Shown: piece by piece, positions 13,201 to 50,299 of the stretch | Numbering within the stretch: position 1 is the stretch's first letter | Layout: every line of letters starts with the position of its first letter | Assembly: GCF_003019035.1 (NCBI RefSeq) | Contig: NZ_CP027447.1 | From: Escherichia coli | GTDB lineage: Bacteria; Pseudomonadota; Gammaproteobacteria; Enterobacterales; Enterobacteriaceae | Reading direction: 5' to 3' (one strand) | DNA length: 64,000 bases | Translations under genes and position numbers: made by a program | The notes under the pieces: generated by a model | Database searches by the model: none | Seen by the model: the letters and a program-made list of their open reading frames with translations, nothing else | What the model was told of the DNA's origin: nothing

Positions 13201-13942
13201 TAAACAAGCCATTGCAGCGGCATTTGGTCGGGCAGCCGCGCACTATGAGCAACATGCGGATCTACAGCGCCAGAGTGCTGACGTCTTACTGGCAATGCTC
13301 CCACAGCGTAAATACACCCACGTACTGGATGCGGGTTGTGGACCTGGCTGGATGAGCCGTCATTGGCGGGAACGTCACGCGCAGGTGACGGCGTTAGATC
13401 TCTCGCCGCCAATGCTTATTCAGGCACGCCAGAAGGATGCAGCAGACCATTATCTGGCGGGAGATATCGAATCCCTGCCGTTAGCGACTGCGACGTTCGA
13501 TCTTGCATGGAGCAATCTCGCGGTGCAGTGGTGCGGTAATTTATCCACGGCACTTCGCGAGCTGTATCGCGTGGTGCGCCCCGGAGGCGTGGTCGCGTTT
13601 ACCACGCTGGTGCAGGGATCGCTCCCTGAATTACATCAGGCGTGGCAGGCGGTGGACGAGCGCCCGCATGCTAATCGCTTTTTACCGCCAGATGAAATCG
13701 AACAGTCGCTGAACGGCCTGCATTATCAACATCATATTCAGCCCATCACGCTGTGGTTTGATGATGCGCTCAGTGCCATGCGTTCGCTGAAAGGCATCGG
13801 TGCCACGCATCTTCATGAAGGGCGCGACCCGCGGATATTAACGCGTTCGCAGTTGCAGCGATTGCAACTGGCCTGGCCACAAAAACAGGGGCGATATCCT
13901 CTGACGTATCATCTTTTTTTGGGAGTGATTGCTCGTGAGTAA
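13187..13942 (+). CDS. bioC: Malonyl-ACP O-methyltransferase
   Basis: Track ORF 13148..13942 trimmed to ATG at 13187 ([14 protein letters not shown]...), giving 251 aa; SAM-methyltransferase motif VLDAGCGPG. Confidence 0.9.
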
Positions 13943-14612
13943 ACGTTATTTTGTCACCGGAACGGATACCGAAGTGGGGAAAACCGTCGCCAGTTGTGCA
14001 CTTTTACAAGCCGCAAAGGCAGCAGGCTACCGGACGGCAGGTTACAAACCGGTGGCCTCTGGCAGCGAAAAGACCCCGAAAGGCTTACGTAATAGTGACG
14101 CGCTGGCGTTACAGCGCAACAGTAGCCTGCAGCTGGATTACGCAACGGTAAATCCTTACACCTTCGCAGAACCCACCTCGCCGCACATCATCAGCGCACA
14201 AGAGGGCAGGCCGATAGAATCATTGGTAATGAGCGCCGGATTACGCGCGCTTGAACAACAGGCTGACTGGGTGTTAGTGGAAGGTGCTGGCGGCTGGTTT
14301 ACGCCGCTTTCTGACACTTTCACTTTTGCGGATTGGGTAACACAGGAACAACTGCCGGTGATACTGGTAGTTGGTGTGAAACTCGGCTGTATTAATCACG
14401 CGATGTTGACTGCACAGGCTGTGCAGCAAGCCGGACTCACTCTGGTGGGTTGGGTAGCGAACGATGTCACTCCACCGGGCAAGCGTCACGCTGAATATAT
14501 GACCACGCTCACCCGCATGATTCCCGCGCCGTTGCTGGGCGAAATTCCCTGGCTTGCAGAAAATCCAGAAAATGCGGCAACCGGAAAGTACATAAACCTT
14601 GCCTTGTTGTAG
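13935..14612 (+). CDS. bioD: Dethiobiotin synthetase
   Basis: GTG start at 13935 gives (M)[16 protein letters not shown]..., 225 aa; P-loop GTDTEVGKT. Confidence 0.9.
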
Positions 14613-14771
14613 CCATCCTGTATTTGGTTAAATTGCGAGCGAGATCGCGTCTTCGGTTGACTGCAATTTAACCAATTAAATTCTAAAATAATCACGAAAA
14701 AAATTTTACTTCCGCATCATGCGGTGGATGTGGGAATTGCCCAGGCGGCGGGGGATAGGGGCTGCAGACAG

Positions 14772-14794
14772 TTATCCACTATTCCTGTGGATAA
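14772..14794. promoter_or_regulatory. Inverted pair of DnaA-box-like 9-mers in the uvrB upstream region
   Basis: ttatccact and tgtggataa (reverse complement of TTATCCACA) a few bp apart. Confidence 0.45.
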
Positions 14795-15098
14795 CCATGT
14801 GTATTAGAGTTAGAAAACACGAGGCAAGCGAGAGAATACGCGGCTTGCACGCGAATTGGCGTTAAAGACGGCTCAAAGAAATATCTTTTATTTTTTAACT
14901 GGTTAGATAATTGCAATGGCAGTCACTGAAGAGGCATCTCTTGCCATAAAACTGTCATCACTCATCTTGACAAATGTTAAAAAAGCCGTTGCTTTGGGGA
15001 TAACCCGGTAAGGCCGGAGTTTTATCTCGCCACAGAGTAAATTTTGCTCATGATTGACAGCTGAGTTTACGCTGTAACAGAAATATTATGGTGAGAAA

Positions 15099-15114
15099 CT
15101 GTTTTTTTATCCAG
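15099..15114 (+). promoter_or_regulatory. LexA (SOS) box of the uvrB promoter
   Basis: ctgtttttttatccag (CTGT-N8-CCAG) immediately 5' of a tataat -10 hexamer, about 75 bp upstream of uvrB. Confidence 0.75.
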
Positions 15115-15190
15115 TATAATTTGTTGGCATAATTAAGTACGACGAGTAAAATTACATACCTGCCCGCCCAACTCCTTCAGGTAGCGACTC

Positions 15191-17212
15191 ATGAGTAAAC
15201 CGTTCAAACTGAATTCCGCTTTTAAACCTTCTGGCGATCAGCCAGAGGCGATTCGACGTCTCGAAGAGGGGCTGGAAGATGGCCTGGCGCACCAGACGTT
15301 ACTTGGCGTGACTGGCTCCGGGAAAACCTTCACCATTGCCAATGTCATTGCTGACCTTCAGCGCCCTACCATGGTACTTGCGCCCAACAAAACGCTGGCG
15401 GCCCAGTTGTATGGCGAAATGAAAGAATTCTTCCCGGAAAACGCGGTGGAGTATTTCGTCTCCTACTACGACTATTATCAGCCGGAAGCCTATGTACCGA
15501 GTTCCGACACCTTCATTGAGAAAGATGCCTCGGTAAACGAACATATCGAGCAGATGCGTTTGTCCGCCACCAAAGCGATGCTGGAGCGGCGTGATGTGGT
15601 TGTGGTGGCATCGGTTTCCGCGATTTATGGTCTGGGCGATCCTGATTTATATCTCAAGATGATGCTCCATCTTACGGTCGGTATGATTATCGATCAGCGC
15701 GCGATCCTGCGTCGACTGGCGGAGCTGCAATACGCTCGTAATGATCAAGCCTTCCAGCGCGGTACTTTCCGCGTTCGTGGGGAGGTGATTGACATCTTCC
15801 CGGCAGAATCGGATGACATTGCACTTCGCGTGGAACTGTTTGACGAGGAAGTGGAACGATTGTCGTTATTTGATCCGCTCACCGGGCAGATTGTTTCCAC
15901 TATTCCACGTTTTACCATCTACCCGAAAACGCACTACGTCACACCGCGCGAGCGCATTGTGCAGGCGATGGAAGAAATTAAAGAAGAACTGGCTGCCAGA
16001 CGCAAGGTGCTGTTGGAAAACAACAAACTGCTGGAAGAGCAGCGGCTGACCCAGCGTACCCAGTTTGATCTGGAGATGATGAACGAGCTGGGCTACTGTT
16101 CGGGGATTGAAAACTACTCGCGCTTCCTCTCCGGTCGTGGACCGGGTGAGCCACCGCCGACGCTGTTTGATTACCTGCCTGCCGATGGGCTGCTGGTGGT
16201 CGATGAATCTCACGTTACCATTCCGCAAATTGGCGGCATGTATCGCGGTGACCGGGCGCGTAAAGAGACGCTGGTGGAGTACGGCTTCCGCCTGCCATCA
16301 GCGCTGGATAACCGTCCGCTGAAATTTGAAGAGTTCGAAGCATTAGCGCCGCAAACCATCTATGTTTCGGCGACGCCGGGTAATTACGAGCTGGAAAAAT
16401 CCGGCGGCGATGTGGTGGATCAGGTGGTGCGTCCAACAGGCTTACTTGACCCGATTATTGAAGTGCGTCCGGTAGCGACACAGGTCGATGATCTTCTATC
16501 GGAGATTCGTCAGCGAGCGGCAATTAACGAACGCGTACTGGTTACAACTCTGACCAAGCGGATGGCGGAAGATCTCACTGAATATCTCGAAGAACACGGT
16601 GAGCGCGTGCGTTATCTTCACTCAGATATCGACACCGTCGAACGTATGGAGATTATCCGCGACTTGCGTCTGGGTGAGTTCGACGTATTGGTAGGGATCA
16701 ACTTACTGCGCGAAGGTCTGGATATGCCGGAAGTGTCGCTGGTGGCGATCCTCGACGCTGACAAAGAAGGCTTCCTGCGTTCCGAACGTTCGTTGATCCA
16801 GACCATTGGTCGTGCGGCACGTAACGTTAACGGTAAAGCGATTCTCTACGGCGATAAGATCACCCCATCAATGGCGAAAGCGATTGGCGAAACCGAACGT
16901 CGCCGCGAGAAACAGCAGAAGTACAACGAGGAACACGGCATTACGCCGCAAGGCTTGAACAAGAAAGTGGTCGATATCCTGGCGCTGGGGCAGAACATTG
17001 CCAAAACCAAAGCGAAGGGCAGAGGAAAATCGCGCCCGATTGTTGAGCCAGATAATGTGCCGATGGATATGTCGCCTAAAGCGTTGCAGCAGAAGATCCA
17101 TGAACTGGAAGGGTTGATGATGCAACACGCGCAGAATCTGGAGTTCGAAGAAGCGGCGCAAATTCGTGACCAGTTGCATCAGCTGCGTGAGCTGTTTATT
17201 GCCGCGTCGTGA
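15191..17212 (+). CDS. uvrB: Excinuclease ABC subunit B
   Basis: 673-aa ORF with Walker A GVTGSGKT and helicase motifs. Confidence 0.97.
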
Positions 17213-48077: not shown

Positions 48078-50299
48078 AGCGTTGGTTCCCCCGGCGGCAA
48101 CGGTTCAGCCGGGGTCGCGCCCGGAGCAGGCAGCACCTGATAAGTCTGCACTGGCGCGCGAACGCCCGCCAGGTCGAAATGTTTTTTCACCTGGCTGTCG
48201 AGGGCAAAGCGTACCGTCCACTGTTTGAGTGGCAGCGTGGTGAACGAAACACGCAGTGTAAACGCGGTATTGCTTAAGCCGACAATCCCGGCAAAATTCG
48301 GTTCACCAATAATCAGCCCGCGAATTTCTTCGTTTTCCATCAATTCCGCTACCGCATCTTTCAGTGCCTGATTGGCTTTATCAGCATCTTCATGGCGATC
48401 AACATCGTAATTTGCCACCACCGAACCAATGCCGCGGACGAAGTTAGCAAAGGTAGTTATCGAAGACCACGGAATGATGTGATACGCCCCGGTATCCTGA
48501 CGCACGCCCACGGAGCGAATCGACATCCGTTCCACAGTGCCGGTCAACGGCCCGATAGTCACCAAATCTCCAGTGTTCATGCCGTTTTCAAACTGAATAA
48601 ATACCCCGGTGATAATATCTTTCACCAGCGTTTGCGAACCAAACGAGATAGCCAGACCTAATGCCCCGGCACCTGCCAGCAATGGCGCGATATTAACGCC
48701 GATTTCCGACAACACAATCATGATGGTGATGGTACTGATAATCACCGCCAGCGCGTTACGAAACAGCGTCAGCAGGGTACGCGTACGGGCGCTGGGTAGC
48801 GGGCGGCCATGAATATCCGAAGCCAGCCGGTTTTCGATCAAACTGGCGAGCACTGTCCAGCCAACCGCCGAGAAGAAAAGAATGAGTGCGATACGGATCA
48901 GGATATCTACGGTTTTCTGCCCCGCGCCGTTTTGCAGCCAGTTCCAGAAATCGAACAATCCCCATGCGCTCAACAGCAGCATTACCGCCACGCAGACGGT
49001 CAGAATACGCGCCGTTTTCAGCGCCGCCGACAGCCAGCCATTCAACCGTTTTTGCAGCTCCGGATAGTTACGCTGAGTATGTGGCGAGAGGGTGATGGTT
49101 TTCGCCAGCCAGCGGGAAAACATACCGGAAACAAATGCTGCGATACCAATAATCGCCAGGCTGCGCACCGTTGCACCCATCATAAATTTCAGGCTGTTGC
49201 CCGGATCGAACAACGAAAAGAAAAACAGCACGATAAAATAGGCGCTTGCCAGCCAGTGCCACACCAGCGCAAAGGCGCGGATAAACAGGCTGAAAAAGGC
49301 CAGCGAATGCTCCGCGAAGTTGAGCAAATGCTGGGTAATCTCTTTTTTATTACGAAAGATCAGGTACAGCGCCCAGACCGTCATGCACAGCATAATGATG
49401 ACGTTCGCCAGCGCACCTATCTGTACATTCACCTGATTAGAGATAATCGGCACGGCCACAATCAGGCCATAGCCAATCAGGCTGCTTAACCAGCTCAGGC
49501 GACGGCTCCAGTAACGGGCGGTCTCGTCATGAATCGTGAACGGGCGCAGTTCCGCCACGTTTGGGCAAAAAATCAGGCGTAGTACAGCTTTGAAAAATTC
49601 AATCAGGGCAAAGGCGTTGAGAAACAAACTTTGTTGGAAAGCGATGGTGCGACTGCCCGCATTCAGGTTGTCGCTTAATACCTGGCCGACAAATAATGTC
49701 AGTGCCAGTAACAGCAGGTCGATAATAAACGCCCCGATGATCATCGCCGGAAGCTGCAACCAGTTACTGCGCTCACGATTTTTTTGCCGCGCCCACTGGC
49801 CCATTTTGCGATACAGCGGCAGTGCGCACAGACGAATCAGCCAGTAAAAACCAAACACTAATACCGCTAACATTGAAAAGTGGGTCAGCGCATTGCTGAA
49901 GGTTTGTGGATTAAACGGCTTATGCGGGGAGCCGATGATATTGCGATAAAGTTGCCCGAAGCGGGCGGAAAGGGCTTCACCATAATGGCGGCTGACTTCG
50001 GTGACCTTTTGCAGCACGGTTTGCTCTTCAACCAGCGTCGGCGGCACGATCTTCGGTACGGGTTCCGCAGGGGGCGTCGCGGCGACGGTGCGCAACTGGT
50101 CGATCAACTCTTTACGTGAGGTGTCATTATCCAGCACATCCGCCAGTGCGCCATAGGCCGCTTTTTTTTGTTCGATATCCGGTTCCGGGGCCGGTTCAGT
50201 CGTTGAGTCCGTTGTCGTTGTGGTTGTAACGCCGGGTATGGATACCGCGTGGGCAGGTGCGCCCAGCAGGCAGAAGAGGATGAACAGGATCCACCGCAT
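48074..50299 (-). CDS. ybiO: MscS-family mechanosensitive channel YbiO
   Basis: Track ORF 48074..50326 trimmed to the ATG at 50299 ([18 protein letters not shown]...), 741 aa; signal peptide, multiple TM helices, MscS core. Confidence 0.92.

Follow-up and report, generated by a model that had tools for sequence, protein, structure and literature searches.

The gap between bioD and uvrB in Escherichia coli is long, and it raises the question of which regulatory elements it holds and whether these serve uvrB or another process. It was examined here within a window of 64,000 nucleotides (the whole stretch of DNA that was analysed, to which all positions refer). The upstream gene, bioD (dethiobiotin synthase, the last gene of bioBFCD), occupies positions 13935 to 14612 on the plus strand, and uvrB (excinuclease ABC subunit B) occupies positions 15191 to 17212, also on the plus strand. 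Their identities were taken from NCBIfam equivalog models (TIGR00347 bioD, E 3.6e-67; TIGR00631 uvrb, 1111.7 bits) and from the RefSeq annotation of strain SCU-172 and K-12 MG1655. Between the last base of the bioD stop codon (14612) and the uvrB ATG (15191), the gap runs from 14613 to 15190, and its length of 578 bp, as given by a first-pass annotation made from the sequence, is exact. The equivalent gaps in K-12 MG1655 (812948 to 813525) and SCU-172 are also 578 bp. The gap very probably consists of two known modules in series, namely DARS1 (about 14772 to 14851) and, behind it, the LexA-controlled proximal promoters of uvrB. The whole element is already known as the characterised DARS1 together with the uvrB P1/P2/P3/LexA control region. 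The presence of its motifs, their non-chance status, their identity to K-12 and their conservation come from the present analysis, and the biochemistry and genetics from the literature.

Compared with K-12, the gap of the window shows 13 substitutions and no indels, with the motifs untouched, and positions 14766 to 14910 equal K-12 base for base. Matches to a 1-kb stretch around the gap were identified in 5,424 of 5,426 complete E. coli genomes, with 100% identity to strain SCU-172 and approximately 97% to most other E. coli. RefSeq has no feature annotated under the DARS1 core or under the LexA/P2/P1 stretch. Because DARS1 lacks such an annotation, readers working from sequence only will go on rediscovering "DnaA boxes near uvrB".

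The first-pass annotation had described an inverted pair of DnaA-box-like 9-mers upstream of the LexA box. This pair is present at positions 14772 to 14794 and begins 327 bp upstream of the LexA box, although the description undersold one of its members and stopped short of the full cluster. Box I (TTATCCACT, 14772 to 14780, plus strand) agrees with TTATCCACA at eight of nine positions, while box II (TGTGGATAA, 14786 to 14794, minus strand) is a perfect TTATCCACA on its strand. A third box, which had been missed, is located at 14798 to 14806 (TGTGTATTA, reading TAATACACA on the minus strand, with one mismatch). Boxes I and II are opposite in orientation and separated by 5 bp (TTATCCACT-ATTCC-TGTGGATAA), with box III oriented like box II and situated 3 bp further on. 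All three are within one mismatch of TTATNCACA (1, 0 and 1 mismatches for I, II and III, respectively). A scan of the 64-kb window for single boxes against TTATNCACA, allowing at most one mismatch, returned 49 matches against 50 expected, which is chance level. This loose consensus scan was replaced by a test of the arrangement, and all three box assignments draw on both the box scan and this test. The pattern of a box, five bases and an inverted box occurs once in the 64-kb window and was found in 5 of 500 first-order Markov simulations (mean 0.01 per 64 kb).

This arrangement is that of the DARS (DnaA-reactivating sequence) elements. According to Sugiyama et al., the DARS core comprises boxes I to III, with I and II opposite and 5 bp apart, and box II of DARS1 is a complete consensus (PMC6868365). 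A DnaA ChIP-seq study names cTAATACACAtggTTATCCACAg, upstream of uvrB, as the double box of DARS1 (PMC11317965). It has also been described that a 42-bp flank, at bases 198 to 239, is needed for full ADP release in vitro (PMC4585315). If that numbering starts at the bioD stop codon, this flank would correspond to positions 14810 to 14851 of the window, where a conserved alignment block (TTAGAAAAC...GCGAGAGAATACGCGGCTTGC) was identified. The traits specific to DARS1 were thus all found: a position upstream of uvrB, a box II of perfect consensus and the flank. Judged by its sequence, the three-box cluster in the bioD-uvrB gap is the core of DARS1, a known element. The K-12 element is said to have been described by Fujimitsu, Senriuchi and Katayama in 2009. 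The window shares with it the bioD-uvrB locus, the three boxes, the spacings and the flank; no difference occurs in the element itself, the 13 differing positions being elsewhere in the gap and two of them in the P2 -35.

Its function in the window, like that of the uvrB control region, would follow from identity to the K-12 element. In the proposed mechanism, ADP-DnaA would bind the perfect box II first, and more ADP-DnaA would then be recruited head-to-head to box I and head-to-tail to box III. Head-to-head contact between the AAA+ domains would lead to ADP release, after which apo-DnaA would leave and rebind ATP, so that the ATP-DnaA level would rise before oriC is next initiated. The published work on K-12 has ADP released from the protomers on boxes I and II through head-to-head AAA+ contact that needs Gln208, with box III supporting complex formation (PMC6868365). 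For the K-12 sequence identical to that of the window, release of ADP from ADP-DnaA and a rise of ATP-DnaA in vivo have been reported (PMC6868365, PMC5835720). Deletion of DARS1 raises the initiation mass by approximately 20%, changes the ATP-DnaA level and is synergistic with deletion of DARS2 (PMC5835720); it also reduces fitness in LB, and colonisation of mice is strongly impaired (PMC4585315). The best-documented job of DARS1 is the regeneration of ATP-DnaA for replication initiation, rather than control of uvrB. The element helps to time chromosome replication, and strains without it are less fit in the mouse gut, all of which has been published for the identical K-12 sequence.

Comparison with DARS2 supports this assignment. 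DARS2 of K-12 (rppH/ygdT-mutH), the layout of which was checked on the region upstream of mutH, reads TTATTCACC-TTTTC-TGTGGATAG-agt-TGTGAAGAA and has the same 5-bp and 3-bp spacings; nucleotide exchange is, according to the literature, a function shared with DARS1. It differs in that all three of its boxes carry mismatches and its core has lower affinity, and its flanks do not align with those of DARS1. DARS2 depends on a long regulatory region with sites for IHF and Fis; for DARS1, activity without an activator protein has been reported. The clusters at datA, dnaA, mioC, nrdA and polA resemble DARS1 in having a high-affinity TTATCCACA with a same-strand box 2 to 3 bp away, but they are without the opposite box at 5 bp, a DARS-specific trait. 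datA promotes ATP hydrolysis, the opposite reaction to that of DARS. The "double DnaA box" that these loci share is the arrangement preferred in vivo (PMC11317965).

The second module was examined with a LexA matrix. A loose scan for CTGTN8ACAG, allowing one mismatch, gave 20 matches in the 64-kb window against 17.5 expected; this is chance level and uninformative. It was replaced by a heterology-index (HI) matrix of the Lewis/Berg-von Hippel form, trained on 28 LexA sites of E. coli, with uvrB and dinG omitted. The matrix scan that had been proposed for the LexA box placed AACTGTTTTTTTATCCAGTA (15097 to 15116) first of the 127,962 20-mers in the window, with HI values of 3.07 and 5.59 on the two strands. 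These values fall within the range of the training sites (1.04 to 10.66), while the lowest HI in 30 simulated 64-kb sequences was 7.68. It is the sole site in the gap with an HI below 17, the next best being 17.7. The three additional LexA boxes proposed by others (PMC6015884) were rejected, as they found no support in the matrix (HI of at least 17.7). The second-best match in the whole window, TATTGGCTGTTTATACAGTA at 37944 to 37963 (HI 6.3), lies approximately 20 bp upstream of the DinG start; it is the known dinG SOS box and was taken as a positive control for the matrix.

The core of the uvrB LexA box, CTGTTTTTTTATCCAG at 15099 to 15114, has the form CTG-N10-CAG with AT-rich sequence between the two triplets and directly abuts TATAAT at 15115 to 15120, just as had been noted at first reading. 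This hexamer is the -10 of promoter P2 (15091 to 15120, plus strand; -35 GTGAGA, 18-bp spacer; 10/12 in the promoter scan), and the LexA box fills the P2 spacer and abuts its -10, thereby overlapping the core promoter. Promoter P1 follows at 15124 to 15152 on the plus strand (-35 TTGGCA, 17-bp spacer, -10 TAAAAT; 10/12), and its transcription would start near 15159, which fits the published fragment limits of -77 to +33, with +33 at the ATG. A third and weak promoter, P3, is placed approximately at 14772 to 14815 (plus strand), overlapped by boxes I to III. A consensus promoter scan with a cut-off of 9/12 detected no promoter at the P3 position; of the mapped promoters, the P2 -10 and both P1 hexamers were recovered, and P3 was unseen. 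The placement of P3 over the boxes, like the limits given for DARS1, was drawn from secondary sources and from inference, and the P3 hexamers, like the transcription start positions, should be taken as approximate. The P1/P2/P3 cluster with its LexA operator was reportedly described by Sancar et al. in 1982 and by van den Berg et al. in 1985.

Wurihan et al. (2018) studied the same promoter cluster and LexA operator in K-12, using footprints of LexA and DnaA as well as reporters fused to P1-2 and P3 (PMC6015884). Their uvrB LexA box is the same 20-mer, AACTGTTTTTTTATCCAGTA, between the -35 and -10 of uvrBp2 (PMC6015884). Relative to that published cluster, the window shows no change in the LexA 20-mer and retains the P2 -10 as well as the two P1 hexamers; the P2 -35 differs, being GTGAGA in the window and GTGATG in K-12. 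These two bases (15095 and 15096) are the sole K-12 difference within the promoter elements, lie outside the LexA 20-mer and probably have no consequence. DnaA boxes 5 to 7, which are DARS1, have been placed "in the uvrBp3 promoter", the P3 fragment reaching from -567 to -280 relative to the P1 start (PMC6015884). P1-2 alone gave approximately 30% of the full promoter-region activity and P3 alone approximately 20%, and a TG-to-CA change in the perfect DnaA box raised P3-lacZ 5.9-fold; DnaA represses P3 (PMC6015884). The multi-promoter, DnaA-modulated control of uvrB proposed at first reading is therefore borne out by the published P3 repression and by LexA in P2 (PMC6015884), although the role of the boxes as DARS1 had been left out. 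DnaA bound at DARS1 would also cover the weak P3 and so repress it. LexA on 15097 to 15116, in the P2 spacer, would block P2 until RecA stimulates LexA self-cleavage in the SOS response, and P1 just downstream would provide basal uvrB expression. The LexA box puts nucleotide excision repair under SOS control. Nalidixic acid induces uvrB 14-fold in Salmonella, where the gene carries a single SOS box (HI 5.66) at a distance of 73 bp from its ATG (PMC8072944); this spacing agrees with that of approximately 74 bp in the window.

Both modules are conserved among enterobacteria, in line with the expectation of the first-pass annotation. A UvrB query with one genome per species returned 80 loci, among them 11 Enterobacterales other than the window (Escherichia albertii, Citrobacter, three 'Enterobacter', Superficieibacter, Acerihabitans, Yersinia, two Photorhabdus and Providencia), and both motifs were found in all 11. 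The block AGTTATCCACyATTCCTGTGGATAACCnTGTGnATTAG is essentially invariant upstream of uvrB in each of these relatives. Across the 12 Enterobacterales including the window, box II is fully invariant and box I is invariant save for T or C at its last base. CTG-N10-CAG is kept in all 12, and in the 11 relatives it is located at -52 to -98 from the ATG. Beyond the order, a LexA box was also identified upstream of uvrB in two of three Vibrio species. Aeromonas, three Vibrio species, Shewanella, Parashewanella and one MAG also have the three-box layout in front of uvrB; the layout was absent in the sampled Pseudoalteromonas, Colwellia, Idiomarina, Rheinheimera, Haemophilus, Halomonas and Betaproteobacteria. 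The 42-bp flank (TAGAAAA...CGAGAG...CGCGGC, 14810 to 14851) is conserved in Enterobacterales only, being missing in the sampled Aeromonas, Vibrio and Shewanella. bioD directly precedes uvrB in only a part of these genomes, and it is not nearby in Aeromonas, Vibrio and Shewanella; DARS1 thus travels with uvrB and not with bioD, and its linkage to uvrB reaches far beyond bioD-uvrB synteny. Of the 5,423 E. coli genomes that have a match to the 47-bp core, 5,422 are in the band of at least 99% identity (100% in the seven such matches listed), and the 64-bp LexA/P2/P1 stretch shows at least 99% identity in 5,067 genomes. DARS-like sequences have been described as conserved in many proteobacteria (PMC10380432), and the DARS1 boxes as invariant in 59 E. 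coli genomes (PMC4585315). Given these earlier reports, the conservation found here is a confirmation and not a discovery.

The DnaA boxes could also be viewed as a purely transcriptional operator for uvrB that has no part in DnaA nucleotide exchange. The 5.9-fold rise of P3-lacZ on mutation of box II and the DnaA footprint on the site (PMC6015884) point in this direction, as does the fact that the cluster adjoins uvrB over several orders even where bioD is not upstream. However, the opposite pair of boxes I and II with its 5-bp gap is the very arrangement that has been shown to bring about ADP release, and it recurs in DARS2 at an unrelated gene. Deletion of DARS1 alters the initiation mass and the ATP-DnaA level (PMC5835720), P3 gave only approximately 20% of the promoter-region activity (PMC6015884), and ADP release in vitro has already been reported for the identical K-12 sequence. 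An operator without any exchange role is considered improbable on these grounds, and a role as operator and a role in nucleotide exchange are not mutually exclusive.

A different account would have the conserved 330 bp between DARS1 and the SOS box encode a structured RNA (the P3 leader or a small RNA) or a small protein, which would explain the conservation. P3 transcribes through this region and segment lengths are constant (126 to 129 bp between flank and box 4, described below), both of which would suit such a product. An Rfam scan of 13800 to 15800, with E values up to 1, gave no match, and RNAalifold found zero conserved pairs among 12 species, either in the region from P3 to P2 or in its first 76 nt (the DARS1 flank). 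Single-sequence folds differ among species, with no shared terminator, and length differences of 1 to 2 bp rule out a reading frame. This account has already been largely refuted and is regarded as highly improbable. The loose scans (LexA, 20 matches with 17.5 expected; DnaA, 49 with 50 expected) would even allow the motifs to be functionless chance matches in an AT-rich spacer. That is refuted by the arrangement of the pair, expected 0.01 times per window, by the ranking of the LexA site as first of 127,962 20-mers, and by conservation, both motifs being invariant in Enterobacterales where the flanks go down to 50 to 60% identity; the probability left to chance is negligible. DARS1 followed by the LexA-controlled uvrB promoters is the reading that best accounts for the gap.

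Downstream of the DARS1 flank, the DnaA box scan identified a fourth DnaA-like box, TTATCCCCA, with one mismatch (14995 to 15003, minus strand), 209 bp from box II. It is present in 10 of the 11 Enterobacterales relatives, at 208 to 211 bp from box II when the window is included. The spacer between flank and box 4 (14852 to 14994 in the window) is 126 to 129 bp in every case, yet only 60 to 80% identical to that of E. coli. The two segments after box 4 vary much more in length (58 to 95 bp and 36 to 82 bp). The centre of the published "DARS1" DnaA ChIP-seq peak, 813331, converts to position 14996 of the window, which is on box 4 and 200 bp downstream of the core, while the other peaks checked are 1 to 147 bp from their double box. 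For this comparison, eight entries of the ChIP-seq table were compared with the NC_000913.3 sequence, and the table was found to use the.3 coordinates (PMC11317965). A peak centre 200 bp from the core suggests that occupancy in vivo may not centre on the core. Wurihan et al. had already placed three "potential" DnaA boxes in the stretch from P3 to P2 (PMC6015884), so box 4 itself is probably not new. No mention of the fixed spacing between box II and box 4 was found in the cited DARS1 and uvrB literature.

The sole mildly novel lead of this analysis is this length-constrained downstream arm with box 4, the role of which has not been isolated in the cited literature. It is a tentative and rather doubtful suggestion that DARS1 exceeds the core and 42-bp flank, forming a phased, looped DnaA complex with box 4 over approximately 20 helical turns. 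Were this the case, the loop may couple DARS1 activity to the SOS promoter region of uvrB; alternatively, the segment may regulate DARS1 much as the arm with the IHF and Fis sites regulates DARS2. The IHF consensus WATCAANNNNTTR was sought by eye in a conserved block at approximately 14897 to 14912, with no convincing match. Judged from the published primers, the widely used delta-DARS1::cat deletion removes the equivalent of positions 14628 to 15064 of the window (PMC4585315). Almost all of the gap in front of P2 is lost with it, so that P3, every conserved block and also box 4 are missing from the allele. The phenotypes credited to DARS1 on this basis can therefore not be assigned to the three-box core alone.

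Several minor features of the locus were also recorded. A 13-bp perfect inverted repeat read from the sequence at 14624 to 14675 on the plus strand (TTGGTTAAATTGC ... GCAATTTAACCAA, 26-nt loop), close behind the stop codon of bioD, may be a putative terminator stem of the bio operon. At -20.9 kcal/mol, its fold does not stand out significantly from those of shuffled sequences (z -1.16), and in the 12-species Enterobacterales alignment it is kept in E. coli and E. albertii only. Two terminator-like hairpins were rejected: the stem at 14771 to 14795 is merely the inverted repeat formed by boxes I and II, and that at 15005 to 15017 is not complementary in E. albertii. Two small ORFs overlapping DARS1 (14719 to 14865 on the plus strand and 14779 to 14916 on the minus strand) were likewise set aside, as their upstream parts are unconserved and their indels are not multiples of three. 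Elsewhere in the window, the LexA matrix gave an HI of 8.0 to AACTGAATAAATACCCCGGT at 48591 to 48610, inside the glnH coding sequence, which is probably a chance match. The approximately 5,426 matching places for the region are chromosomal save for two on plasmids. In strain ZH063 (L089:4059-4060), a prophage with P27-family terminase genes was identified within the bioD-uvrB gap. Its junction is equivalent to positions 14958/14959 of the window, directly 3' of ...AAAACTGTCAT, and the prophage splits DARS1 and P3 from the P1/P2 promoters of uvrB.
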